Below, piece after piece: positions 3,513 to 47,713 of a stretch of DNA of 64,000 bases. Both the position numbers and the translations under genes were made by a program. A model generated the notes under the pieces. It did no database searches. It saw only the letters and a list, made by a program, of their open reading frames with translations, and had not been told where the DNA came from. The stretch comes from Oscillospiraceae bacterium (GTDB lineage Bacteria; Bacillota; Clostridia; Oscillospirales; Feifaniaceae): assembly GCA_963662765.2 (NCBI GenBank), contig CAXXUP010000002.1, positions 164,568 through 228,567 on the forward strand, written 5' to 3'. How positions within the stretch are numbered: the first letter of the stretch is position 1; each line of letters begins with the position of its first letter.

Positions 3513-4357
3513 GCGAAAAAATGATAGAAACGCAGGCGCTCTCCTTTATCTACACGGGGGAAGAGGGTGAGTGCCTTGTACTGGACGGCATCGACCTTAC
3601 CATCGAGCGCGGCTCTTTTGTGGCTATTATCGGGCACAACGGAAGCGGAAAATCGACTTTGGCAAAGCATTTCAATGCCGTACTGCTGCCGTCAGGCGGC
3701 AAGGTTTTTGTCGATGGCATCGATACAACCAACGAGGCCCGACTTTTCGACATTCGACAGCGGGCAGGAATGGCCTTTCAAAACCCCGACAACCAGATCG
3801 TCGCCACCATCGTGGAAGAGGATGTCGCCTTTGCCCCCGAAAACCTCGGGGTGCCGCAAAAAGAGATTGTCGAGCGGGTTGAACACGCGCTAAAGGCCGT
3901 CGACATGTGGGAATACCGGGAGCATGCGGCCCATCAGCTGTCGGGCGGTCAAAAACAGCGGGTGGCTATTGCCGGCATCATCGCCATGCGCCCCCTTTGC
4001 ATCGTGCTCGACGAGCCGACGGCCATGCTCGACCCGCAAGGGCGCAAAGAAGTGCTGGGGACGATCCAAAGCCTCAACAGGGATGAGGGGATCACGATTA
4101 TTCTCATCACCCACTATATGAACGAGGCGGCCATGGCGGACCGCGTCGTCGTGCTCGACGGGGGAAAAATCGTCATGGACGGCCCCCCGCGGGACGTGTT
4201 TTGCCGGCAGGAGGAGCTGCGTGAGCTCGGCCTCGAGGCCCCGCAGGCGGCGGCCCTCGTCCACCGGCTTCGGGAGTGTCTCCCCTCGCTGCCGGAGGTG
4301 CTGACGCCAAGCGAGGCGGAGGCCGCGATCGCCTCATTGTTTGAGGGGGGTGTGTGA
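3509..4357 (+). CDS. ecfA1: Energy-coupling factor (ECF) transporter ATPase, first copy
   Basis: MSEKMIETQALSFIY... with Walker A GHNGSGKST, signature LSGGQKQRVAIA and Walker B IVLDEPT. ATG 3509 overlaps the upstream stop (ATGA). The 3266 start in the ORF track is an upstream extension in a shadow frame. Confidence 0.9.
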   Translation: MSEKMIETQALSFIYTGEEGECLVLDGIDLTIERGSFVAIIGHNGSGKSTLAKHFNAVLLPSGGKVFVDGIDTTNEARLFDIRQRAGMAFQNPDNQIVATIVEEDVAFAPENLGVPQKEIVERVEHALKAVDMWEYREHAAHQLSGGQKQRVAIAGIIAMRPLCIVLDEPTAMLDPQGRKEVLGTIQSLNRDEGITIILITHYMNEAAMADRVVVLDGGKIVMDGPPRDVFCRQEELRELGLEAPQAAALVHRLRECLPSLPEVLTPSEAEAAIASLFEGGV

Positions 4358-4358
4358 C

Positions 4359-5228
4359 ATGGATATCTTACAGCTTGAGGGTGTCACATACACTTACAGC
4401 CGCGGGACGCCCTTTGAGAAGACAGCCATCGAGGACATCACGTTGGGACTGCCGCAGGGGGAGTTCATCGGCATCATCGGTCACACCGGCAGCGGAAAAT
4501 CGACTCTGGTGCAGCATTTAAACGGGCTTATGCAGCCAAGCTCTGGCCGGGTGCTGCTCGATGGAAAAGATATATGGGCACAGCCGAAAAAAATCCGGCA
4601 AGTGCGCTTTGAGGTGGGGCTTGTGTTCCAGTACCCGGAATACCAGCTCTTTGAAGAGACGGTCTACAAGGACATCGCCTTTGGGCCGACCAACATGGGG
4701 CTCTGTGAGGAGGAGGTCGACCGCAATGTGCGGGAGGCCGCCCGTATGGTCGGAATAGAGGATGGAATGCTCACATCGTCCCCCTTTGAGCTGTCGGGCG
4801 GCCAAAAACGCCGAGTGGCAATCGCCGGCGTCTTGGCCATGAAGCCGCGGGTTTTAGTGCTCGACGAGCCGACGGCGGGACTTGACCCGCAGGGCAGGGA
4901 TGAAATTCTCTCCCGCATCCATGATTACCACGAGGATGCCGGCACCACCGTCGTCTTAGTCTCCCACAGCATGGAGGATGTGGCCCGCCACTCCGACCGG
5001 GTGCTGGTCATCAGCCACGCGAAGGTCGCCATGTACGGCGAGACCCGTGAGGTTTTTGAGCGGGCGTATGAACTTGAAGCGATGGGGCTTGACATCCCGC
5101 AGATCACGAAGGTCTTTATGGGGCTTCGGGACCGGGGCCTGCCGGTCCCCGGCGGCATCTACACGATTGAGGACGCCGAGCGGGAAATTCTGCGGCTTTG
5201 CAGCGAGAGGGGGGTGCCCCATGCTTAA
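4359..5228 (+). CDS. ecfA2: ECF transporter ATPase, second copy
   Basis: MDILQLEGVTYTY..., GHTGSGKST, LSGGQKRRVAIA, LVLDEPTAGLDP. ATG 4359 lies 1 nt after the ecfA1 stop. Confidence 0.9.
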   Translation: MDILQLEGVTYTYSRGTPFEKTAIEDITLGLPQGEFIGIIGHTGSGKSTLVQHLNGLMQPSSGRVLLDGKDIWAQPKKIRQVRFEVGLVFQYPEYQLFEETVYKDIAFGPTNMGLCEEEVDRNVREAARMVGIEDGMLTSSPFELSGGQKRRVAIAGVLAMKPRVLVLDEPTAGLDPQGRDEILSRIHDYHEDAGTTVVLVSHSMEDVARHSDRVLVISHAKVAMYGETREVFERAYELEAMGLDIPQITKVFMGLRDRGLPVPGGIYTIEDAEREILRLCSERGVPHA

Positions 5229-6024
5229 AGACATCACGCTGGGCCAGTTTTTTCCCGGACACTCTTTTGTCCACAAAATGGACGCCAGGGTCAAAATCAT
5301 CTGTGTCATCCTCTATATCGCGTGGCTCTTCTTTGTCAAGACTTTCGCGGCCTACGGGGTTATTGCGGTTTTTCTGGCAGTGGTCGTCATCTCGTCAAAG
5401 ACCCCCTTTCGGACGGTGATTAAAAGTGTCAAGCCACTTATGGCCATCATTGTCATCACGTCGGCCATCAACATTTTCTACACCCCGGGCACCACGATCT
5501 TCGTGCTCGGGTTCCTGAAGCCAACCTGGGAAGGGCTTCGTTCGGCCGCCTTCATGGTGCTGCGAATCATGTTCCTCATCATCGGCACTTCGCTTTTAAC
5601 TTACACCACCTCGCCCATCATGTTGACCGATGCCATCGAGCGGCTACTCGGGCCTTTTAAGAAAATCGGCTTGCCGGTACACGAACTTGCCATGATGATG
5701 ACCATTGCGCTGCGGTTTATTCCGACCTTGATTGAAGAGACCGACAAGATCATGAATGCTCAGAAAGCAAGAGGCGCCGACTTTGAGAGCGGCGGACTCG
5801 TCAAACGGGCGACGGCCTTGGTGCCGATCTTAGTGCCGCTCTTTGTCTCAGCCTTCCGCAGGGCGGATGAGCTTGCCATCGCCATGGAGTGTCGCTGTTA
5901 CCACGGCGGCGCCGGCCGTACCCGCCTCAAGGTCATGAAGATGGGCGGAATCGATTTTGTGGCCGTTGTCATCGTTTTTGCGGTGCTTGGCGGTGTACTT
6001 TGGGCCAATGGATTGCCATATTAA
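5221..6024 (+). CDS. ecfT: ECF transporter transmembrane component EcfT
   Basis: MLKDITLGQFFPGHSFVHKMD..., multi-TM, with the ARGADFES region typical of EcfT. It overlaps the ecfA2 stop. The ecfA1-ecfA2-ecfT-truA order is the canonical Firmicute arrangement. Confidence 0.9.
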   Translation: MLKDITLGQFFPGHSFVHKMDARVKIICVILYIAWLFFVKTFAAYGVIAVFLAVVVISSKTPFRTVIKSVKPLMAIIVITSAINIFYTPGTTIFVLGFLKPTWEGLRSAAFMVLRIMFLIIGTSLLTYTTSPIMLTDAIERLLGPFKKIGLPVHELAMMMTIALRFIPTLIEETDKIMNAQKARGADFESGGLVKRATALVPILVPLFVSAFRRADELAIAMECRCYHGGAGRTRLKVMKMGGIDFVAVVIVFAVLGGVLWANGLPY

Positions 6025-6054
6025 GTCAGACACTGCCCGAAAGGAGGCGCTGCC

Positions 6055-6795
6055 GTGGAGCGACAACTGCTCATTAAACTCTCATTCTTAGGCAGCGCAT
6101 ACGCGGGTTTTCAAGTGCAGCAAAACGCTCCCACCGTGCAGGGGACGATCCAAAAGGCGCTGCGCATGCTGCTGAAGGAAGAGGTCCCGGTCACGGGGTG
6201 CGGACGTACAGATGCCGGCGTCCATGCGCTTGAATACTGTTGCACAACAAAAACCACATCAGACTTTGCACCCTGTAAGCTTGCAAGGGCGCTTAACGCG
6301 AACCTGCCATGCGACATTTCGGTGTCGGAAGTTCTGGAAGTTCCGATGGATTTTCACCCCAGGTACAGCGCCCTCTGGAAGGAGTACCAGTACCGCATCT
6401 GGACGATGCGCCACCGCAACGTGTTTGAGGCGGCGACCAGCTGGCACCATCCCGCCCCTTTTGACATCGAGGCGGTTATCCAAAATGCCCCCTGCTTTGA
6501 AGGGGAGCACGACTTTACCTCCTTCATGGCGGCCGGCAGCAGCATAGAGGACACGAGACGTTCCATATACTTGTGCGAGGCGTTGTTTGCGCAAGGAATG
6601 TTGACCATCCGGGTGCGAGGCGACGGATTTCTCTATAACATGGTGCGCATCATGGTGGGCACCCTTGTGGAGGGCATTGATGTAGAGGCGGCTATCGCCG
6701 CATGCGACCGGTTGGCGGCAGGACCTACGGCACCGGCATGCGGACTGGCCCTCGCAAAAGTTTTCTATCCGACGCTTGGAGGTGACCAGCCATGA
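6055..6795 (+). CDS. truA: tRNA pseudouridine(38-40) synthase TruA
   Basis: GTG start behind AAGGAGG (6041-6047). Contains GFQVQ, GCGRTDAGVHA (catalytic Asp) and GDGFLYNMVRIMVGTL. Confidence 0.9.
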   Translation: MERQLLIKLSFLGSAYAGFQVQQNAPTVQGTIQKALRMLLKEEVPVTGCGRTDAGVHALEYCCTTKTTSDFAPCKLARALNANLPCDISVSEVLEVPMDFHPRYSALWKEYQYRIWTMRHRNVFEAATSWHHPAPFDIEAVIQNAPCFEGEHDFTSFMAAGSSIEDTRRSIYLCEALFAQGMLTIRVRGDGFLYNMVRIMVGTLVEGIDVEAAIAACDRLAAGPTAPACGLALAKVFYPTLGGDQP

Positions 6796-11451: not shown

Positions 11452-11901
11452 GTGAAGTGCGTGGATACCAGAGAACTATTTGCAAGGCTCATCAACTGTG
11501 AGGCGGGCGGTGAGGGACTCGATGGGATGCGCGCCGTCGCAACCGTTGTAATGAACCGCGTCAGGGTGGCAAATGGAGAGTACCGCCGAATCGGCCAAGG
11601 GGATTTGAGGAAGGTCATTGAACAAACGTGCCAGTTTTCCTGCTACAAAACACAATTGGGAGGTGTGGACAATCACCAGAATGTCTGGGTGACTACTCCG
11701 GAGGAAATCCATTATCAGGTCGCCGACTGGGCAATGAATGGCGGGATTCATCTTGGAGCGGGCTCCGATTCTTTGTGGTATATGAACCCCTACAGGCCCC
11801 AGTGCCCCAACTTCTTTCCCTACAATCAAACCGGATACTGGTTCACAAGGATCAACCAGCATTGCGTTTATAATCCGACCGAGTCCTATTCGCAGACATA
11901 A
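11452..11901 (+). CDS. cwlJ: Spore cortex-lytic enzyme of the SleB/CwlJ (Hydrolase_2) family, CwlJ-like (short, with no signal peptide or PG-binding domain)
   Basis: LFARLINCEAGGEGLDGMRAVATVVMNRV...CQFSCY...NPY... is the Hydrolase_2 core. The protein is about 146-149 aa. A GerQ-like gene follows immediately, as in Bacillus. The start is GTG 11452 or GTG 11461 (behind GAGGTG). Confidence 0.75.
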   Translation: MKCVDTRELFARLINCEAGGEGLDGMRAVATVVMNRVRVANGEYRRIGQGDLRKVIEQTCQFSCYKTQLGGVDNHQNVWVTTPEEIHYQVADWAMNGGIHLGAGSDSLWYMNPYRPQCPNFFPYNQTGYWFTRINQHCVYNPTESYSQT

Positions 11902-22462: not shown

Positions 22463-22729
22463 ATGAGCTGCAACTGTTCATGTAATTCGGTCGGCCCCGT
22501 CCGCCCCTTTCACGAACTTTCAAACGCGCTGCTTGCAGGCAAGCGCATTCACCTCGTCTTCCACGAGGCTCTCTCCCGCCCGGAGGAGTATTGGCATCTT
22601 GACAAGGCGACTGAGGAATACGTCTGCACGCTGATGGAAAGAGAATATATGCGGTGCCCGTCCGGCCGCTTTATGGCCCGGGTCCAGGACGACATGGTCG
22701 CAGCCGTCGTGGCGGAGATTATCGATTAG
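22463..22729 (+). CDS. Small hypothetical protein (88 aa, MSCNCSCN N-terminus)
   Basis: Open frame with high-GC codon usage behind GGAGGTAAAC. No recognisable motif. Confidence 0.5.
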   Translation: MSCNCSCNSVGPVRPFHELSNALLAGKRIHLVFHEALSRPEEYWHLDKATEEYVCTLMEREYMRCPSGRFMARVQDDMVAAVVAEIID

Positions 22730-25624: not shown

Positions 25625-28594
25625 TTGTTACTGAAGAGGTCCGTTGCGCTGCTGCTCACTTTTGCGACACTGCTCACAATGCCCTGTACCGGCTTTGCCG
25701 CGTCGGTGACGGAGCAGACACTCTACACCACGGCGTCCGACTGGGCCAAGCCGGAAATTATGAGCGCCTACGATGCCGGCCTGATCCCCGCGGGTCTATT
25801 GAATAAAAAGGCGACCGAGCCGGCTACGCGGGAGGAACTGTGCGAGCTGGCCGTACTCCTGTATGAAAAAACAACGGGAAAGACGGCTGTACCGGCTTCG
25901 CCCGACCCGTTTACGGATACCACGAATCCGGCCATCCTGAAGGCCTATGCGCTTGGTATCACGACCGGGACCTCGGCTACGACCTTTTCCCCAAACGACA
26001 AAACCAACCGTGAACAGGTGGCCACCATGTTCGGCCGCGCAATCCGCACCATGTTCCCGGGCGGCGACTACGGCACTGCCGGCGCCCCTGTGTTTACTGA
26101 TCAGGCGGATATTTCCTCCTGGGCGCTCGAGCACGTGCTCTACATGAGCAAGGCCGGAATTATCAAGGGTGCAAACGGCGCGTTTATGCCCCGTGCGATC
26201 ACCGACGCGCAGAAGACGTCCGGCTACGGGACGACGACGCGCGAGCAGGCTGTTGCCATCACGGTGCGCATCAGCGGTTTAAATATCAACACATCCGGCG
26301 GCGAGGAAGAATTCGCCCAATCGCTCATCCGTACCTCTGCGGGAAAACCCACAGAGGCACTAAAGCTTGCGGCAATCGATTTTGACAGCCGTGTTTTTCG
26401 GCCGATCTATCGCCCTGTCATTGCGCTTTCTGCGCAGAGTGCGCCCGGCTCCGACACGATGTCCGCCGCGCCTTTTACCGCTGTCGTGTCACACGACGAT
26501 CCGCTTGCAACATTCAAGCTGAGTATGCGCGCCGGTACGGTGTCGCAGGCAGCAAAAATCGTCTGGCAGGTCTCACTGGTGCCGTTTAGCGGCGCACCGG
26601 TGACAAACCCGGCCGTAAAACCGGGTGGGCTGCTCCTCTCCGGGGAACTGAGTACATCCGCCTCGTCATTCACACTTGATTTTTCTAAAATTAATGCGGC
26701 GCAGACAAAACTGATGAGACCGAGCGAGCCGCCGGTCAGCCTAAGTGCGGTTTTGTTATTGCCCACAGTTCGTCCGAACGTAAAGCTTCCGACCCTGACG
26801 GGGAGTTGGCTGCTGACCCATTATGGCACCGAGTCGGCAACCGCTCTGCGAACCTATTATGTCCGCGTCTATCCGGCGGACGCCTTGGGAAAAAGCATCG
26901 GCGACGCGGGCGCAGGCCTGCCCGTCTTGTATGGGGACCCGATGGCGGCCAAAAGCAGCACTTTAATCAATATCAACACCTATTTCGCCCTGCAGCTCGC
27001 GGACAAATCCGGGGAGGTCTACTACACGACAGAGTTCCCCAACAAGTTTTACGACGCTACGGAGAAGGCGCTTGTCAACACCATCAACCCTGCCATTTGG
27101 TCCGTGTTGCCCTCCGGCTATCCCGACGGCACGCAGGAGCTCCGGATACAGGTGAGTCTGACCGACTTTGCCGTGCCCGCTTCGGACAGCTGGCGCAGCG
27201 TGCCCGGCCTAGTCTATGAAAAGACGCTCCGTCCGGGTGACGCACAGTTCGATGCCCTGCAGGACGCCAAACCCTTGGGTATTAGCATAGATTTCGATGA
27301 ATTTGTGCCTCCGGACGATAAGCTACCGGAAGGCGAATATCTACGCTATTATATTCGTGCCGTATCCCTCACCGACGGTGCGCAGGCAGGTACGGCTAAG
27401 GCGCATTACTCCAAAACTGTCAAAATCATATACGGGATCGATAATTCCCCGGGCATCAAATTTCTTGAGAACGTCAAAATCACGCCGCCAATTCCGGTCA
27501 TCGAAAAATTGACGTATGTGCCGGTGCAGTGGGAAAGTGAAAACTGGCAGTACCATTATGTCGTCACGCGCCAGCCCACAATGAAAGATGTGTTTGGCCC
27601 GCTTATCGGGAGCGACGCTCCGTATAAGTCTTACGCCGTCGGAACAAAGCTTGACTTCACGCCGCAACCGGAGAACAAATCGTGGTGGGAGGAGGCATGG
27701 GATGCCATTTCCGATTTTTTCGGGAGCATGACGAATTTCCTCGCAAAAATCGTCAACTGGGTCAGTACAGCCTATGCCGATCTGAAATCGGGTCTCATTG
27801 AAATTGTTGTGTCCGCACTGCCATCCGACCTCCAAGGGCCGCTGCGCACAGCGCTTACGGCGATGGTGGACTATGGGCTTGCCTCCATCGGCATCCCTCC
27901 GACGCTTCCAAACTTTGATCAGCTGGCAAACCTCGGCACCGACTATCTGGCGACGATGGCTTTGCAGCAGGCCGGCGTCCCGGCCGGTTCCCTAACCGAA
28001 TACGGCGTCGACGTGTTGTCGGATCAGATTGGGAGCAATCTCAGTAGTTCTGCGGATGCATCTTCGCCAAACCCGATGAACTGGGACTTTGTTCAGCTCG
28101 ACCCGGACGATCTTTATCGCCCTGCCTATCTGCTGGTAGAGCTGTATAACAACACCGGCATCGCGACTCCGGCCGGGCATCTGTCCTTCACCGCAGATAA
28201 GTTTATGGACTTGTCCAAAAACGGAACAGATCCTGCCGTGACGCGTCTGTACGCCGTCTACGGCTCGTCCTATGTATGCCTTTACAAGCCCGTGTTTGGC
28301 ATGGAGATTCCGGCAATGGAGCCGGGTCAGCGTCTGACCGTACCTGTCATACTGGAAGAGTATGTCGGAGTGCCTTTCCCTGGCTGCTCAGCATCTGTAC
28401 TAGGTTCCGATTATGCCAGTATTTACGGGGGACTTGGTGCATTTGATTTCAACCTGTTCATTCAGTATGAACTGCCGCCCATAGCGCAGGAGGCAGCGCG
28501 CCAGGGTCACACCGAGGAGGCCATTTACAGTTACAGCGCCTTGGGCAGTGGCCGGAGCTTTTCCATCGAGCCTAGTCAGGGCTACAGCAAATAA
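25625..28594 (+). CDS. Large secreted S-layer-homology (SLH) domain protein of unknown function (989 aa)
   Basis: TTG start behind a GGAGAGGAAAGGAAG stretch. Signal peptide LLLTFATLLTMPCTGFAAS. Three SLH-like segments (W A.PEI..AYDAGLIP..., F.D..NPAILKAYALGITTG...F.P, FTD...IS.WALEHVLYMSKAGIIKG..G.F.P). About 750 aa remain with no motif I recognise. Confidence 0.8.
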   Translation: MLLKRSVALLLTFATLLTMPCTGFAASVTEQTLYTTASDWAKPEIMSAYDAGLIPAGLLNKKATEPATREELCELAVLLYEKTTGKTAVPASPDPFTDTTNPAILKAYALGITTGTSATTFSPNDKTNREQVATMFGRAIRTMFPGGDYGTAGAPVFTDQADISSWALEHVLYMSKAGIIKGANGAFMPRAITDAQKTSGYGTTTREQAVAITVRISGLNINTSGGEEEFAQSLIRTSAGKPTEALKLAAIDFDSRVFRPIYRPVIALSAQSAPGSDTMSAAPFTAVVSHDDPLATFKLSMRAGTVSQAAKIVWQVSLVPFSGAPVTNPAVKPGGLLLSGELSTSASSFTLDFSKINAAQTKLMRPSEPPVSLSAVLLLPTVRPNVKLPTLTGSWLLTHYGTESATALRTYYVRVYPADALGKSIGDAGAGLPVLYGDPMAAKSSTLININTYFALQLADKSGEVYYTTEFPNKFYDATEKALVNTINPAIWSVLPSGYPDGTQELRIQVSLTDFAVPASDSWRSVPGLVYEKTLRPGDAQFDALQDAKPLGISIDFDEFVPPDDKLPEGEYLRYYIRAVSLTDGAQAGTAKAHYSKTVKIIYGIDNSPGIKFLENVKITPPIPVIEKLTYVPVQWESENWQYHYVVTRQPTMKDVFGPLIGSDAPYKSYAVGTKLDFTPQPENKSWWEEAWDAISDFFGSMTNFLAKIVNWVSTAYADLKSGLIEIVVSALPSDLQGPLRTALTAMVDYGLASIGIPPTLPNFDQLANLGTDYLATMALQQAGVPAGSLTEYGVDVLSDQIGSNLSSSADASSPNPMNWDFVQLDPDDLYRPAYLLVELYNNTGIATPAGHLSFTADKFMDLSKNGTDPAVTRLYAVYGSSYVCLYKPVFGMEIPAMEPGQRLTVPVILEEYVGVPFPGCSASVLGSDYASIYGGLGAFDFNLFIQYELPPIAQEAARQGHTEEAIYSYSALGSGRSFSIEPSQGYSK

Positions 28595-28924
28595 CACCCA
28601 GTGAACGATAATTGAGCAAACGCAGTCATTAAGAAAGCATAAAACCGCTTAATCTCATGTATAGAGGTTCGATGGGCGGGTTATCGTCTGGATGCGCCAA
28701 CTATTTTTCAGCAAAAACAAAGATATCCATTTTAATAGAAAACATGTGTTTTCCGTCCGCGGATTGGTATAACACCTATCCGCGGGCGTTTTTGCGTTGG
28801 AGGCCTCGCGCTCTACACATGTTTTTTGCAATGAAAAAAATACTTATCCATAAAAAAACCTGGGCAAAACCTTGTGTATGAATTCACAAATCGGCATCAT
28901 GATGCTATATACAAAAATATATAC

Positions 28925-29092
28925 TGGGCGGTGGACGCAACGAAACATATGTTGCTGCTTGGCATCATCAAAGGTGACGATGCCGGCAACTTCATGACCA
29001 AGGCGACCACAACGGGCTAAACCGCCGCGGGCTACGGCATGGCAACCCGCGAGGTCGCCATCCTCATGATGGTTGGACCTATGGCGCCATAG
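28925..29092 (+). pseudogene. Orphan SLH-domain fragment with an internal stop
   Basis: WAVDATKHMLLLGIIKGDDAGNFMTKATTTG*TAAGYGMATREVAILMMVG keeps the SLH pattern (WA...GIIKG...GNF...TR.E.A). It has no start and contains a TAA. Confidence 0.5.
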
Positions 29093-29179
29093 ACTATGTT
29101 ATAACACTTGCGAAAAATCGGAGTTCGAACATTAGCCGGCTTTGCCTGCCGGTTTGTCAAGAGATTTTTCCCCTATAAT

Positions 29180-29217
29180 CAGAGGACCTCGCCGATATCG
29201 GCGAGGTCCTCTGTTTT
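29180..29217 (+). terminator. Perfect 17-bp hairpin plus T-run (orphan terminator or small RNA 3' end)
   Basis: CAGAGGACCTCGCCGAT/ATCGGCGAGGTCCTCTG followed by TTTT. TATAAT lies immediately upstream at 29174-29179. Confidence 0.6.
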
Positions 29218-29836
29218 GGCTGCACCATGGCGAAAGGACTCGGGAAAAAGGTCTGTTGCAGAATATCAAAAAAACACGCAGCCTGACGCCGTTTAAAACG
29301 ATGTCAGGCTCGTTTATGTTTGGAGGCAAGTTCCACCGGGAGATGTTTTTCGGTGTTGAGGACTCGGAAAGCCAAACGTGAGCGATCAGGTAACCTGAAT
29401 AATGGTCAGATCGGCATGGATGGGCGATGTACCATACCCGACCGTCGTTCCGGTGTTGTTGAAAAGGCTGAACACCATAGGTAAACTTGTCGGTGTAAGC
29501 AAAGCGTTGCCGATTAACTGCAGCGTGGTAACCGGAGGGGGAGAACTGGCCAGAATTGTCCCCACACCACCGGCGAGGATACGGATGCCGAAATTAACCA
29601 CGGGACTTGTTTCCGCGCCATCGGAGTTGACCCACCAGTTGACATAATAATTGCCTGCTGCCGTGATAAAGAACGTACCTGTTTCCGCATTTTAGGCGAT
29701 ATCCGAAGGAGGCGCGTTGATAACGGAATCGAATATTACGTTGACATTGTTGGCGACCGTACCGCCGCTGCTTTCCTGCAACTGAACCTGCAGGCCGGTA
29801 AGCAGGTTATCGGGACCCGTGGGACCGGTGGGGCCA

Positions 29837-29949
29837 TCAGCCGGTGGGACCGGTAGCACCGTCAGCGCCGGTGGGTCCGGTGGGGCTGTCAGCCGGCGGG
29901 ACCGGTGGAACCGGTAGCACCGTCAGCGCCGGTGGGTCCGGTGGGTCAT
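29837..29949. repeat. Out-of-frame tandem duplication inside the collagen-like segment (52-nt unit plus a ~61-nt unit)
   Basis: Plus strand: tcagccggtgggaccggtagcaccgtcagcgccggtgggtccggtgggg at 29837 versus tcagccgg(cgggaccgg)tggaaccggtagcaccgtcagcgccggtgggtccggtgggt at 29889. Confidence 0.85.
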
Positions 29950-29970
29950 AGGGTGCAGGTGGAAAGGAAT

Positions 29971-30340
29971 CGCATGGCGGCGGGGGATAGTGCTCGCATG
30001 GCGGCGGGGGATAGTGCTCGCATGGCGGCGGGGGATAGTGCTCGCATGGCGGCGGGGGATAGTGCTCGCATGGCGGCGGGGGATAGTGCTCGCATGGCGG
30101 CGGGGGATAGTGCTCGCATGGCGGCGGGGGATAGTGCTCGCATGGCGGCGGGGGATAGTGCTCGCATGGCGGCGGGGGATAGTGCTCGCATGGCGGCGGG
30201 GGACAGTGCTCGCATGGCGGAGGGGGACAGTGATGGCAGGGATGCGGAGGGGGACAGTGATCACATGGAGGCGGAGGGGGACAGTGATCACATGGAGGCG
30301 GAGGGGGACAATGATCACGGGGCGGATGGGGAGAGGGCTT
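29971..30340. repeat. 24-bp tandem array (cgcatggcggcgggggatagtgct): 9 identical units, then ~6 progressively diverged units
   Basis: The period can be read directly. It encodes (PPPPCEHY)n grading into CDHCPPPP on the minus strand. Confidence 0.95.
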
Positions 30341-30486
30341 ATGGTGCGAAGGGACATAGGTGTCGCTGGGCGATGAGTCGTATCTGTCACCAGAAGAAGG
30401 TGCATGGGAATTTCCGGACAAAGAGAACAACATAGGCAGAATCTCTTTTATTAAGTTATCATTCATAAGCAGGTCGCTTATAAGTC

Positions 30487-30790
30487 CGTCATTCGAAGAT
30501 TTTCCATTGGAAGGTTTTCCATTCGAAGATTTTCCATTCGTAGATCTGCCATTTGCAGATCCGTCATTTTCAGATCTGCGATTCGTAGATTTGCGATTCG
30601 CATGCCTGCCATTCGCAGATCTGTCATTCGCAGATCTGCCATTCACAGGTCTGTCATTCGCAGGTCTGTCATTTACAGACCCGTCATTCGCAAATATGTC
30701 ATTCACAGATATGTCATTTGCAGACATGTCATTCGCAACTATATCATTCGCAGCTATGTCATTCGTAAATCTGCCATTATCGAAGTTGTT
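30487..30790. repeat. 15-bp degenerate tandem array (~gtcattcgcagatct), about 18-20 units
   Basis: The period can be read directly. It encodes ANDIS/VNDRP/ANGRS/SNGKS pentads on the minus strand. Confidence 0.9.
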
Positions 30791-31270
30791 CTTTTTGTTG
30801 CTCCGATCATGACCGTTGTGCCGGCGATTTCTAAGTGTCAAATTGATGGCTCCTTTCGGGATTGATTGTAAGGAAGGCTACAACCCATTATATGCGATGA
30901 ATGTACAAACGTTTGCAGAATTCCCCCATTTTCGACATATGGTCAAGACGATTTGCGAGCACTTTTTTCCCCAGAACCACAGAAAGGACAGACTCAGCCC
31001 GACTGCGCGGATGACCTTCAGTCAAGGCAAAAAAAACGGTAAAGATGCTACCCGTTTTCGGGCAACATCTTTGCCGTGAACATACCGCCTTTTACTCGAA
31101 AATTACGGGAGGACTGCCTTGAGGTGCGGCGGATTGCCCTTACCGTCGTTTAAACTGTTTTCCGAAAGCTTATATAAACAGATGTGAAGCGCACGCAGGA
31201 CAAAAATCAGTGCCGCAGTAAGTAAGCCGGAGTACCAGAAATCCGCCGTTTTCAAGAATTCGGCCAGGCC

Positions 31271-31702
31271 ATGCTGATGTTAAAGGAGAAAAATGGCTAC
31301 ATCCGCTCGATTGATGTGGCGGGGCGGCTTGGCGTCACCAAGCCCAGCGTCAGCTACACTACGAAACGCCTGCGGGAGGGCGGATATCTCACAATGAATC
31401 ACGAAGGGCTCATTTCGCTGACGGGGTCCGGCATGGAGATCACCCAGCGGATGTGCGAACGGCACAGGCTGCTGTCGGAATATCTGAGGCGGCTTGGTGT
31501 CGACGAAAAGACAGCGGGGGAGGAAGCCTGCAAAACCGAACACGACATCAGTGAAGAGAGCTTCAAGGCAATCTGCCTTCACGCGAAGGGTGAAAACCAA
31601 AGCCGTAAAAAACTGTGTATTCATTTGTCTGAATTCGCTGAAAATCGGAGGCCGCCGGATTTTTCCGGCGGCTCCACTATTTTTGCCGAAATGATGCGGT
31701 AA
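31271..31702 (+). CDS. DtxR/MntR-family metal-dependent regulator, N-terminally short
   Basis: KNGYIRSIDVAGRLGVTKPSVSYTTKRLREGGYL (HTH), ...RHRLLSEYLRRLGVDEK...EACKTEHDIS (dimerisation/metal helix). The usual first helix (..EDYLE.IY) has no start codon upstream; a TAA sits at 31223. Confidence 0.65.
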   Translation: MLMLKEKNGYIRSIDVAGRLGVTKPSVSYTTKRLREGGYLTMNHEGLISLTGSGMEITQRMCERHRLLSEYLRRLGVDEKTAGEEACKTEHDISEESFKAICLHAKGENQSRKKLCIHLSEFAENRRPPDFSGGSTIFAEMMR

Positions 31703-31762
31703 GTGGCTAAAATGGCGGGTTTGCATAATATGCTTTAAATACGCTATTTTGGGAGGAACCCT

Positions 31763-32869
31763 ATGATAGGAATAAGCCTGTGCATGATTGTAAAAAATGA
31801 AGAGGACACTTTGCAAAAATGTCTCAATTCTGTAACAAATTTGGTTAACGAAATTGTTATAATGGATACTGGGTCCACTGACAGGACAAAGGAAGTGGCT
31901 GCGGCGTTCACCGAGAATGTCTACGACTTCGAATGGATCGACGATTTTTCGGCTGCCCGAAACGCCGCTTTCGACAAGGCCACGATGGACTATATCCTGT
32001 GGCTCGATGCCGATGACGTTTTGCCGCCGTCGGAGGCCGAAAAATTTGCCGAGCTGAAAAGCACGCTGCCGCCCGATATCGACGCAGTATATATGGGCTA
32101 CAACGCCGCCTTCGACGACAAAGGTAGACCCACATTTTCCTATAGCCGGGAGCGGTTGGTCAAAAGAAGCTGTGGTTTTCGCTGGCGGGAGCCCGTGCAC
32201 GAATACCTGGGGGTCGGCGGCAAAACCCTGCTGTCGGATATCTGCGTCGCCCACGCGAAAACGAAGCAGGGGCACAGCGACCGGAACCTGAGAATCTATG
32301 AAAACAGGCTGGCAAAGGGGGAGGAGCTCTCTCCCCGCGGAACTTATTATTACGCCAGAGAACTGCGGGACAACGGGCGGTTTGATGAGGCAGCGGCCGT
32401 ATTTCGCCGGTTTTTAGATGAGGGCCGCGGTTGGATGGAGGACAACATCACGGCTTGCGGGGACCTTGCCGGGTGCCTGACGGCGGCGGGCAGGTCAAAA
32501 GAGGTGCTGACGGCGCTTCTGGAGAGTTTTCGCTATGATACACCGCGGGCGGAGCTCTGCTGCCGGATCGGTTACTACCATAAGGAGCTTTCGGACTTCC
32601 GGCAGGCCGCTTTCTGGTTTGAACTGGCACTTAATCTGAAAAGACCGGAACCGGTGCGCGGTTTTTTTCAAGCCGATTGCTGGGGATATATCCCGAGTGT
32701 CGAGTGCTCGGTATGCTACGACAAGCTCGGAGATTTCGAGAAAGCGGAGCGCTTCAACGAGCTTGCCGCGACCTACAAGCCAGATTCACAAGCCGTCGAT
32801 TACAATCGTAAATATTTTGCGAAGCGGAAAACTACGGATAGCCACCATAAAATCGAAAATTCTCAATAA
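31763..32869 (+). CDS. Family-2 glycosyltransferase with a C-terminal TPR-like helical domain
   Basis: ISLCMIVKNEEDTLQKCLNSV...IVIMDTGSTDRT...DDFSAARN...WLDADD (GT-A fold, DxD), then helical repeats (YYYARELRDNGRFDEAAAVFRRFL...). Confidence 0.85.
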   Translation: MIGISLCMIVKNEEDTLQKCLNSVTNLVNEIVIMDTGSTDRTKEVAAAFTENVYDFEWIDDFSAARNAAFDKATMDYILWLDADDVLPPSEAEKFAELKSTLPPDIDAVYMGYNAAFDDKGRPTFSYSRERLVKRSCGFRWREPVHEYLGVGGKTLLSDICVAHAKTKQGHSDRNLRIYENRLAKGEELSPRGTYYYARELRDNGRFDEAAAVFRRFLDEGRGWMEDNITACGDLAGCLTAAGRSKEVLTALLESFRYDTPRAELCCRIGYYHKELSDFRQAAFWFELALNLKRPEPVRGFFQADCWGYIPSVECSVCYDKLGDFEKAERFNELAATYKPDSQAVDYNRKYFAKRKTTDSHHKIENSQ

Positions 32870-32904
32870 TGCTCAGACGGCCTAAAATAATTTTCAAAAA
32901 AGTG

Positions 32905-32932
32905 TTGCATTTCCGAAAACTATTAGTATAAT
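32905..32932 (+). promoter_or_regulatory. Candidate atp operon promoter
   Basis: TTGCAT-N16-TATAAT, 35 nt upstream of the atpI-like start. Confidence 0.5.
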
Positions 32933-32966
32933 ATTGGTCTGTGCCTAAAAATCGGGAGATGGAAAA

Positions 32967-33239
32967 ATGCTGGGATTTTTTATAGGAATTGTATGCGGCG
33001 CCATGGAGCTTTTTTTCTTGCAGCGCTTAATCAATGCCATGCTGGGCGGACAAACGCTTAAGGTCGGACTGCTGGCTTTACTCAAGCTGGCAGTGTTGGC
33101 CGCAACGCTATCCATTGTGATAATCTTTGCGCGGCAGGACCTCGTCTGGTGCGGCGTGGGGATTACGGGTTGCTTAATCGGCGGCTCAGTCATTTTGTTT
33201 TTGAAGAACGCCGGCATGAAAGGAGGCAACAAAAATTGA
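32967..33239 (+). CDS. atpI: AtpI/AtpZ-like small membrane protein
   Basis: 90 aa with hydrophobic helices, immediately upstream of atpB (TGATG overlap). Confidence 0.6.
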   Translation: MLGFFIGIVCGAMELFFLQRLINAMLGGQTLKVGLLALLKLAVLAATLSIVIIFARQDLVWCGVGITGCLIGGSVILFLKNAGMKGGNKN

Positions 33240-46975: not shown

Positions 46976-47713
46976 TTATTTGTTTTCATGAGAAATGATA
47001 AAGCCGGGATTAGCTGCGGAAGTTTTGAGTGCCAGACCGGTGGAGCCCGCGAAGGTCGGGAGAATTCCCGTGATATTGGTCACAGGGACGAAGGAGGGAT
47101 TGGTGCCCAGCATGTCGTCTGCAACAACGAGCATGCCGTATACGTTTTTGTAGACGACTCCGGCCAAATCGATCACCGTGCCAATATGGACCTCGACCGT
47201 TGTACCAAGCGGCAAATAGTCGTGAATTGCCGTGACGATATTTGTGTCAAAGCCTTGGGTGAAGACAGGCTTCGAAAGATAGTTAATTGCGAGATTGTAA
47301 GGGACTCCATTCAAAAACGTGATCGATGCAATTGACTGAAGCGGCATGGCACCGACTTCGCCGCCCTCATTTACAACAAAGAGACCACCGTAAGTGGCGT
47401 CGGGAGATGAGAAAAGCTCGACCGGAGTCCCCTCAAGTCCCGCAAAAGTAAAGCCGGTGGCGTATGCCCGCAGTACGGTCGTGGGGTAATAACGGATGAT
47501 CTGTGCGAGCACATGCGCAAGTTGCGCATAGGTATAGCTGACAGCCGTGTCGTTTAAGCTGCCCGGTCTTCCGGGAGGCCCGAAAGGTCCCGGTGGGCCG
47601 GGAGGGCCGGTATAGTAGTAGATCTGGGGATTGGAACCGTCAGGGTCATATGGGCTCCTAACATTTTTTGGAAACATGGAATGCTTGCCTCTTTTCATAT
47701 TGGGGTTCCACAT
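46976..47713 (-). CDS. Hypothetical protein with a short collagen-like tract (GPPGPPGPFGPPGRPG) and an unknown ~190-aa C-terminal domain
   Basis: 245-aa ORF. The likelier start is ATG 47677 (MFPKNV...) behind AGAGG. Confidence 0.65.
   Translation of the reverse strand: MWNPNMKRGKHSMFPKNVRSPYDPDGSNPQIYYYTGPPGPPGPFGPPGRPGSLNDTAVSYTYAQLAHVLAQIIRYYPTTVLRAYATGFTFAGLEGTPVELFSSPDATYGGLFVVNEGGEVGAMPLQSIASITFLNGVPYNLAINYLSKPVFTQGFDTNIVTAIHDYLPLGTTVEVHIGTVIDLAGVVYKNVYGMLVVADDMLGTNPSFVPVTNITGILPTFAGSTGLALKTSAANPGFIISHENK

Follow-up and report, generated by a model that had tools for sequence, protein, structure and literature searches.

Described collagen-stalked fibres and the window locus

In Bacillus and in Clostridioides difficile, collagen-like fibres with BclA/C1q heads determine how spores adhere, clump and interact with the host. 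In BclA of Bacillus anthracis and Bacillus cereus and in BclA1-3 of C. difficile (Pfam families PF01391 and PF18573), a jelly-roll head of the C1q/TNF type follows a stalk composed mostly of GPT triplets. A gene of the same general architecture, on the minus strand between positions 30841 and 29386, was analysed here in a stretch of 64,000 nucleotides from an Oscillospiraceae bacterium (GenBank assembly GCA_963662765.2, contig CAXXUP010000002.1, 164,568–228,567), referred to below as the window, with positions counted from its first letter. Our preferred reading, with a probability of about 0.65, is that this locus is a recently inactivated gene for a trimeric, collagen-stalked, BclA/C1q-headed spore fibre, from which a head-less product is possibly still made.

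The family of the window gene shares with the BclA proteins the order of stalk and head, an adjacent glycosyltransferase and a stalk length that varies by repeat number. The bclA1-3 genes of C. difficile depend on sigma-K (PMC3789822), and they and the window gene have a sigma-K-type promoter in common. In contrast to BclA, the window gene is missing the exosporium leader (LxGPTLPPIPP type), its head shows about 22% identity in structural alignment, and it carries a long low-complexity N-terminal extension of pentad and Cys/Pro/His repeats. The window copy is also disrupted, with a vestigial stalk.

The closest structural match for the head is found in the L-BclA/F-BclA tip fibrils of Bacillus endospore appendages (Protein Data Bank (PDB) code 9h38), which, like the window family, combine a leaderless N-terminal connector, collagen and a C1q head. 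In the B. cereus group, L-BclA and the candidate S-ENA tip protein AGE80398.1 have Cys-containing N-termini (CC motif), and docking through disulfides has been proposed, so that a Cys-containing connector followed by collagen and a C1q head, without an exosporium leader, is already described for L-BclA-type tip fibrils (PMC11362473, PMC12357932). The L-BclA connector is short, however, whereas the window gene contains a 122-residue tandem array with 19 Cys, and the two N-termini have no sequence similarity. Furthermore, the L-BclA system belongs to Bacillus and the window gene to a lineage of Clostridia, probably Oscillospirales, and linkage to ena genes (DUF3992/DUF4183) was not found beside the window gene. 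The window arrays also recall CotG-like coat proteins, which consist of tandem arrays of short charged or Tyr/Cys units, are made late in the mother cell and show quick repeat turnover; there is, however, no sequence relationship, and CotG-like proteins are not fused to a collagen/C1q head.

A BclA/C1q-like head domain

The C-terminal domain (DNLLTGLQVQLQ...ADLTIIQVT, 29811–29389, about 140 residues) is followed by a TGA stop codon at 29388–29386 and contains one in-frame TAA at 29694–29692. With this TAA replaced by Tyr, the domain matched BclA_C (PF18573) with E = 1e-4 and 22.6 bits over profile positions 10–127 of 128, and C1q (PF00386) with E = 0.017. A search of 5.8 billion proteins returned 16 homologues of the head, with E values down to 1e-59 and identities of 72–77%, most of which carry precomputed matches to Collagen and/or BclA_C. 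Among the 17 aligned family members, 16 matched BclA_C (best E value 1e-8) and 6 matched C1q, and a family profile compared with the PDB retrieved the human C1q globular head at 3.6e-8.

The fold was assessed on a close homologue, the database protein P0002, which stands in for the window head and is 77% identical to it. The AlphaFold2 model of P0002 is all-beta, with a mean predicted local distance difference test (pLDDT) score of 78.5 and a predicted TM-score (pTM) of 0.77. Its top match in Foldseek was the F-BclA tip-fibril head of B. thuringiensis (9h38; E = 1.6e-8, TM 0.72–0.77), and other matches include BclA (1wck of B. anthracis, 2z5w and 3tyj), C1q heads, ligands of the EDA/TNF family and PRD1 P5. 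Superposition of the model on the F-BclA and BclA heads gave TM values of 0.6–0.77. Profile matches and fold of the stand-in thus support a BclA/C1q-like C-terminal domain in the window gene, as the first-pass annotation of this DNA had proposed from its residue pattern.

Gene anatomy and repeat modules

The open reading frame (ORF) that remains begins at a TTG start codon (30841) and ends with a TGA at 29837, encoding 334 residues on the minus strand; the span given in the first-pass annotation, from the start of this ORF to the head stop codon, is exact, and its description of four modules (basic leader, pentads, Cys/Pro octads and a short GXY tract) is correct. The ORF opens with the basic leader, (M)TLRNRRHNGHDRSNKKNNFD (30841–30779), followed by an array of ANDIS, VNDRP, ANGRS and SNGKS pentads (30778–30490), which Tandem Repeats Finder reports as 19.3 copies of a 15-nt period (score 193, or 214 as a 45-nt period) and which corresponds to about 18–19 units at the protein level. 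A non-repetitive linker of 58 residues (30489–30317) contains the motif LLxNDxLIxEI (DLLMNDNLIKEILPML) and has invariant columns in the alignment with its orthologue (see below). The linker leads into the Cys/Pro/His array (30316–29951), whose 15 octad or nonad units grade from CDHCPPPPP to nine identical CEHYPPPP and end in CDSFPPAP. At the DNA level this array was detected as 12.6 copies of a 24-nt period at 30274–29970 (94% matches, score 506), overlapped by 5.4 copies of a 27-nt period at 30332–30192. The array spans 122 residues and includes 19 Cys, 61 Pro and 16 His. The ORF closes on a frame-scrambled collagen remnant, which forms part of a vestigial collagen region (29950–29812) recognized by three-frame translation.

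These repeats are far beyond chance. Pentapeptide-repeat proteins (PF00805) form a beta-helix of A(D/N)LXX units with a hydrophobic centre residue in every pentad; that residue is missing from most of the window pentads (NGRS, NGKS, NDRP), and the Pfam search gave no match to PF00805 at E <= 1. Neither part of the window gene matches NCBIfam. Rfam, applied to 28500–31500, produced two far-sub-threshold matches only, and no RNA element appears to explain the region. Coding on the plus strand was rejected, as the plus-strand ORFs of 128–176 residues mirror the repeats and all homology lies on the minus strand, the strand chosen in the first-pass annotation.

An intact orthologue with different repeat units

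The N-terminus of the window gene is shared only by a gene in a metagenome-assembled genome (MAG) (locus L005, contig DATMZG010000099.1, gene at 4120–6429). The L005 gene is an intact single ORF of about 2.3 kb encoding about 770 residues, and its head, of which P0002 is the database record, is 79% identical to the window head. Its leader, (M)TSKNRRSHRHDRSS, resembles the window leader on direct reading of both sequences; MAFFT instead placed it on a later part of the window pentad array. From its TTG start, L005 continues with the leader, only about four NG/ND pentads, the linker motif (LLKNDKLISEI, compared with LLMNDNLIKEI in the window), arrays of Ser/Arg-rich and acidic DEPSYD units with a 48-nt period that have no window counterpart, a Cys array, 37 GXY triplets and the head. 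The Cys array is built on a 16-residue unit, CGKPDCHPCxEYDTxS, with a 48-nt period, in place of CEHYPPPP. Module order is thus conserved between the two genes, while repeat units and copy numbers differ. An alignment of the two N-termini found nothing at E <= 0.01 in the 5.8 billion proteins.

Three frame switches and a nonsense codon

The collagen region is split across three reading frames, with the switches marked by TGA codons at 29948–29946, 29891–29889 and 29839–29837. The remnants read PTGPTGADGATGSTGPAG (29945–29892), PTGPTGADGATGPTG (29884–29840) and GPTGPTGP (29835–29812), and the GXY triplets number 6 + 5 + 3, each group in a different frame; Pfam Collagen was not detected in the window gene. 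For comparison, the stalk contains 37 triplets in L005 and 136 in L008, and relatives in general have tens to more than 100 in one frame. In DNA alignment to the intact L005, L008 and L010, switches two and three each show a gap of 2 nt (GG[NN]CTGA); the first is compatible with the loss of 1 nt, and there the alignment leaves the exact change unsettled. Switches one and two cancel in the main ORF, where the collagen DNA between them is read as DPPDPPALTVLPVPPVPPAD, and the third, which is uncompensated, cuts the head off from the 334-residue ORF. The TAA at 29694–29692 occupies a conserved position, at which 16 of 16 homologues have Tyr or Phe. A change of the genetic code was rejected because most window genes end in TAA or TGA (17 and 11, respectively, among 32).

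To restore the window gene, three frame corrections and the removal of one stop codon would be required, and only a vestige of its collagen stalk is left. The first-pass annotation had treated the gene as one frame repair from intact and quoted a head pattern as though continuous, passing over the TAA; the collagen is spread over three frames, not two. The window copy would yield at most a head-less, Cys/Pro/His-rich protein of 334 residues and, judged from its sequence, a fibre cannot be built from it.

The window head nevertheless retains all invariant residues of the family. The ratio of nonsynonymous to synonymous substitution rates (dN/dS) is 0.15–0.34 between the window head and its relatives, and 0.07–0.30 among the relatives, values that fit mostly purifying selection with mild recent relaxation. 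Since the head keeps its invariant residues, its dN/dS lies in this range, and promoter, ribosome-binding site (RBS) and terminator are intact (see below), the loss, if real, is recent. Exact look-ups of the 334-residue ORF, the 71-residue ORF after the TAA and the 55-residue collagen/head ORF found no protein record.

Expression signals and genomic neighbours

Upstream of the start codon, an AC dinucleotide (30912–30911), a 16-nt spacer and CATATAAT (30894–30887) form a promoter equal to the C. difficile sigma-K consensus, which has AC at -35 and CATATAAT at -10 (PMC3789822). On the two strands of the 64-kb window taken together, AC-N15-17-CATATAAT occurs only once, as does CATATAAT itself. 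The RBS GAAAGGAG (30857–30850) stands 8 nt ahead of the TTG. The 5' regions of the window gene and L005 are 82% identical over about 200 nt, and the promoter sequence and spacing, the RBS core GAAAGG and the TTG start are all conserved. In the family at large, AC-N15-17-CATAnnnT precedes the first start codon by no more than 200 nt in 26 of 69 non-redundant loci, where shuffled sequences predict 3.4. The conserved promoter, searched as a DNA pattern in metagenome contigs, gave zero matches. About 75 nt past the head stop codon lies an intrinsic terminator, a hairpin with U7 (29311–29268), with a folding energy of -23.5 kcal/mol (z = -5.2; 0 of 200 shuffles fold as well); its position means that the transcription unit covers both the 334-residue ORF and the head.

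Divergent from the fibre gene, on the plus strand at 31763–32869, is an intact gene for a family 2 glycosyltransferase with tetratricopeptide repeats (GT2-TPR; Glycos_transf_2, E = 5.5e-24, plus TPR). At 13 or more loci, homologues with 44–85% identity adjoin the family gene, and at 8 others there are remoter ones. L005 is among the former, with a GT2-TPR neighbour that is 84.5% identical over 168 residues present at the contig end. The enzyme is therefore, by analogy, a candidate modifier of the collagen-like protein.

The organism is taken to be a spore former because the window encodes a cwlJ/sleB-type gene. The first-pass annotation had counted both cwlJ and a sigF-like gene in the spore context. 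The former is real, as a CwlJ/SleB-type hydrolase (Hydrolase_2) at 11452–11901, but at a distance of some 18 kb; the ORFs tested included no sigF-like gene. Its inference of a spore-surface role is independently strengthened by three features, namely the promoter, the glycosyltransferase next door and the range of taxa in which the family occurs. The surroundings are otherwise of housekeeping character, with an ATP synthase operon, large ORFs expected as rpoB/rpoC and an ORF of EF-G size.

Three further genes of the window were noted. A 989-residue protein with an N-terminal S-layer homology (SLH) domain and no assignment for the remainder is encoded on the opposite strand just downstream of the fibre gene (25625–28594, plus strand). 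A second collagen-like ORF of 245 residues (46976–47713, minus strand) combines a brief GPPGPPGPFGPPGRPG tract with a C-terminal domain that is unrelated and has no Pfam match. AC-N16-CATATGAT lies just upstream of, or overlaps, the annotated start of this ORF, so that its true start may be an internal Met; it possibly encodes another late-sporulation surface protein. Finally, an ORF of 88 residues (22463–22729, plus strand) has no Pfam match at E <= 0.1 and begins with MSCNCSCNS, which resembles ExsY/CotY-type N-termini.

Range, architecture and annotation of the family

Among 1.84 billion cluster representatives searched with a profile, relatives of the head number 594 at a threshold of E <= 1e-3 and 243 with E <= 1e-10, and head-based scans yielded 78 loci in GTDB genomes and 49 in metagenomes. 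Carriers include Oscillospiraceae, Lachnospiraceae, Christensenellales, other Clostridia and Paenibacillus; cultivable species with an intact relative are Faecalicatena contorta (L017), Muricomes intestini (L014) and Lacrimispora xylanisolvens (L052/L053). The best identity in the GTDB scan was 79%, so the species of the window is absent from the GTDB genomes scanned; in the metagenome scan, relatives had at most 68% identity and a same-species copy was not found.

In most loci, the head frame continues upstream into one long ORF. The first-pass annotation had left room for a locus that is never intact in related genomes; single-ORF relatives such as L003/L008, L004/L009, L005, L010 and L017 are intact. 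Intragenic frame switches are rare, with 3 cases in 97 collagen-bearing loci. At L021 (5373–5490) a compensated pair keeps the ORF open, at L041 (5760) there is a single switch in the collagen array, and L050 (5054–5959), from an isolate assembly, shows many collagen switches that look like errors.

In 49 of the 69 complete collagen-bearing members, the 40 residues directly before the first GXY run include three or more Cys, and many of these segments are CPPCPP-like, for example CPPSPSCPPCPPCPPCPPSHC in L035, PCPPPRPCPPAPPCYPCPP in L043 and CPPCPPCPPIPQC in L072. The Cys/Pro array of the window gene thus represents an expanded version of a family-wide Cys-rich segment. The first-pass annotation knew of no described protein with a Cys/Pro octad array and an N/D pentad array in front of collagen and head. 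Its claim of novelty is weakened for the Cys-rich pre-collagen segment, since such a segment is the family norm and L-BclA provides a precedent; the leader/pentad module and the octad unit alone are lineage-specific.

Annotation of the family is systematically incomplete. Several database proteins (P0002, P0004, P0006 and P0008) hold only the last 116–134 residues of intact members whose real ORFs extend over 550–850 codons, and they appear short because gene callers miss the upstream part. Public calls at L003/L008 (6001–6396), at L004/L009, at L005 (P0002) and in P0006 start with M at an internal V or L codon.

Several variants of the architecture were observed. A conserved non-collagen insert of about 50 residues breaks the stalk in L008 (about 5065–5215), L010 (about 5325–5470), L017 (about 5275–5420) and L065 (FEPGEFLFNVIGETGSATVSIGDNLTFESSTLDITVTPGSAIVTIEDP). 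In L034, L036–L040, L042, L046 and L073, no collagen separates the head from a fused N-terminal domain, about 180 residues long, with the pattern TQTLLTTGTTYVSS ... LKFDLSSIP ... AILRLFV ... NQWLNG ... YGIAL. Two-headed ORFs, in which head, collagen and head follow in one frame, occur at L045, L049, L059, L069 and L109. A predicted transmembrane helix (e.g., FLFVFIPLLILIAFLIFLAIIINPGIPGPPG) takes the usual position of the Cys segment in L060/L121, L070, L071/L130, L124/L125, L061 and L114, which come from MAGs labelled Mollicutes or Bacilli.

Serine-recombinase elements at related loci

At 12 related loci (L001, 4257–6010; L002, 939–2690; L016, L023, L024, L025, L027, L048, L057, L088, L099 and L104), a large serine recombinase of about 550 residues directly abuts a 5'-truncated BclA-like gene. 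These enzymes have Resolvase, Recombinase and Zn_ribbon_recom domains and are 39–52% identical to the L001 enzyme, which adjoins siphophage tail genes. The truncated copies start inside the distal collagen and are 95–96% identical to uninterrupted genes in related organisms from 125 nt (L001 compared with L010) or 40 nt (L016 compared with L017) upstream of the head. This looks like recurrent insertion of a prophage or intervening element into a spore-fibre gene. Sporulation intervening elements are known for sigK, spsM, spoVFB, gerE and yabG, and a collagen-like gene is not named as a target there (PMC10747680). Given the 2-nt gaps, the scrambled collagen of the window gene might be a scar of serine-recombinase activity, but this is speculation, and a recombinase was not found within the window.

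Evaluation of alternative explanations

Several observations weigh against reading the locus as a recently inactivated spore-fibre gene. The BclA_C score of the window head lies under the Pfam gathering threshold of 38 bits. Ena-type fibre genes (DUF3992/DUF4183) were not found among the ORFs tested within about 10 kb, and direct reading of the 334-residue sequence showed no Bacillus exosporium leader of the PTLPP/ALPPI type (motif type as in PMC12357932), through which BclA of the B. cereus group docks on ExsFA/BxpB (ExsF). The nine identical octads indicate a 5' part that is still mutationally active, and are silent on selection. Some members from MAGs labelled Mollicutes or Bacilli (for example L060, L070, L071 and L124) carry a transmembrane helix and are without the Cys-rich segment, which suggests that some lineages have membrane-anchored rather than spore-anchored fibres; a spore role thus need not hold for every family member. 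Lastly, the lesions all fall in a central 1.07 kb (about 29209–30281) outside independently assembled contigs, so that a fault of assembly or sequencing is possible.

That last point underlies the alternative that the gene is intact in the organism, and that its frame switches, the shortness of the collagen and perhaps also the TAA arose as artefacts of assembly or sequencing in GC-rich tandem repeats, a kind of region that usually defeats assemblers. Two short-read Logan contigs of ERR12015700, one 100% identical to window 30281–33219 and the other carrying the 989-residue SLH gene on the other flank, stop short of the lesions from both sides, at 30281 and about 29209. Across the family, contigs break at collagen arrays, and many matches lie at contig ends; the window has about 15 triplets, where relatives carry from tens to over 100; the isolate assembly at L050 shows multiple error-like switches; and both 2-nt gaps have the same context, CCGG^CTGA, as expected of a systematic error. 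The TAA, however, sits in unique, non-repetitive head sequence, the flank that could be aligned to an independent assembly is 100% identical, and collapse of in-phase 9-nt repeats should keep the frame. Other large genes of the window that were examined are all intact, and broken genes were not found elsewhere in it. The absence of a protein record for the locus is also compatible with a pseudogene call by the depositors' pipeline. On balance, we consider an artefact unlikely, but a chance to be taken seriously. Programmed frame changes, with +1 frameshifting at GGC-TGA-Y and stop read-through, or phase variation between head-less and headed forms would account for the coincidence of all three switches with TGA, two of them in the context CCGGCTGAY, which resembles the "shifty stop" of prfB. 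Against this, the features are not conserved in L005 or any other surveyed locus (the three switching loci among the 97 do so at unrelated sites), GGC is unable to re-pair in the +1 frame, and no simple-sequence tract is present at the switch sites. A headed product would require three recoding events plus read-through of a TAA that stands at a conserved Tyr position and is a normal terminator in the window, which makes recoding barely credible.

The 334-residue head-less product could also be functional in its own right, as a sigma-K-driven, Cys/Pro/His/Tyr-rich cross-linker of coat or exosporium whose octad expansion was selected. Promoter, RBS and reading frame are all intact for such a protein, the nine identical 24-nt units point to a very recent expansion, and Cys-/Tyr-rich low-complexity proteins (CotG-like, CdeC, ExsY) are typical of the cross-linked spore coat. 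However, the other frames of the repeats are open for 128–176 codons, so that openness is no sign of selection; repeats expand through a mutational process; the sole orthologue, L005, retains the fibre; and a homologue of a stand-alone version was not found in the 5.8 billion proteins. We therefore hold this to be improbable. A phage tail fibre or other non-spore cell-surface fibre, which the first-pass annotation had kept as a possibility, might be suggested by PRD1 P5 among the fold matches, by the prophage genes that several relatives adjoin and by the members with a membrane anchor in place of the Cys-rich segment; C1q/TNF-like heads are also found on phage fibres. Family members are nevertheless absent from the 2.9 million viral contigs of IMG/VR, phage genes were not found near the window locus, and the gene has a sigma-K-type promoter. 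At the prophage-adjacent loci, moreover, the gene is interrupted by the element and not encoded by it, as seen from flanks 95–96% identical to uninterrupted genes. A phage or cell-surface origin is thus very improbable.

Proposed mechanism and significance

Under the preferred reading of a recently inactivated spore-fibre gene, the locus would be the remains of one endospore surface-fibre gene with its own sigma-K-type promoter and terminator. In intact relatives, the promoter motif predicts transcription late in the mother cell. In BclA and C1q, trimerization of the head nucleates the collagen helix; the C-terminal jelly roll of the family would likewise trimerize and nucleate the GXY triple helix. 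The conserved synteny and the BclA precedent suggest that the neighbouring GT2-TPR enzyme O-glycosylates the Thr-rich GPT triplets. By analogy with L-BclA/ENA (endospore appendage) connectors, the Cys-rich segment, placed where the helix has its N-terminal end, may form disulfides that would lock the three chains together and link them covalently to a Cys-rich layer of the spore or to an appendage. In the lineage of the window gene, the pentad and octad arrays would lengthen the N-terminal part through fast expansion, contraction and replacement, and may act as a variable spacer or cross-linking stalk. A more specific proposal is that the front end found only in the window gene and L005 (leader, pentads, LLxNDxLIxEI and Cys repeats) is a hitherto undescribed, hypervariable cross-linking anchor stalk for clostridial spore fibres, whose whole arrays are swapped and resized between close relatives, and that the window copy is a naturally head-less variant still expressed from the sigma-K promoter, giving a cross-linker rich in Cys, Pro, His and Tyr; we offer this as a rather doubtful conjecture.

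Proteins of this kind are already known; what is new is a lineage-specific variant, the leader/pentad/octad front end, and the window copy is defective. If the recombinase finding is true, a gene for a spore-surface fibre would join the few sporulation genes known to be split by intervening elements. Beyond this locus, the 594 cluster representatives point to a sizeable and largely unstudied family of fibres in gut and environmental Clostridia, whose typical features are a Cys-rich segment ahead of the collagen, a GT2-TPR enzyme as partner and promoters of the sigma-K type. Within this family, the window copy exemplifies fast turnover of N-terminal repeat modules and gene loss.

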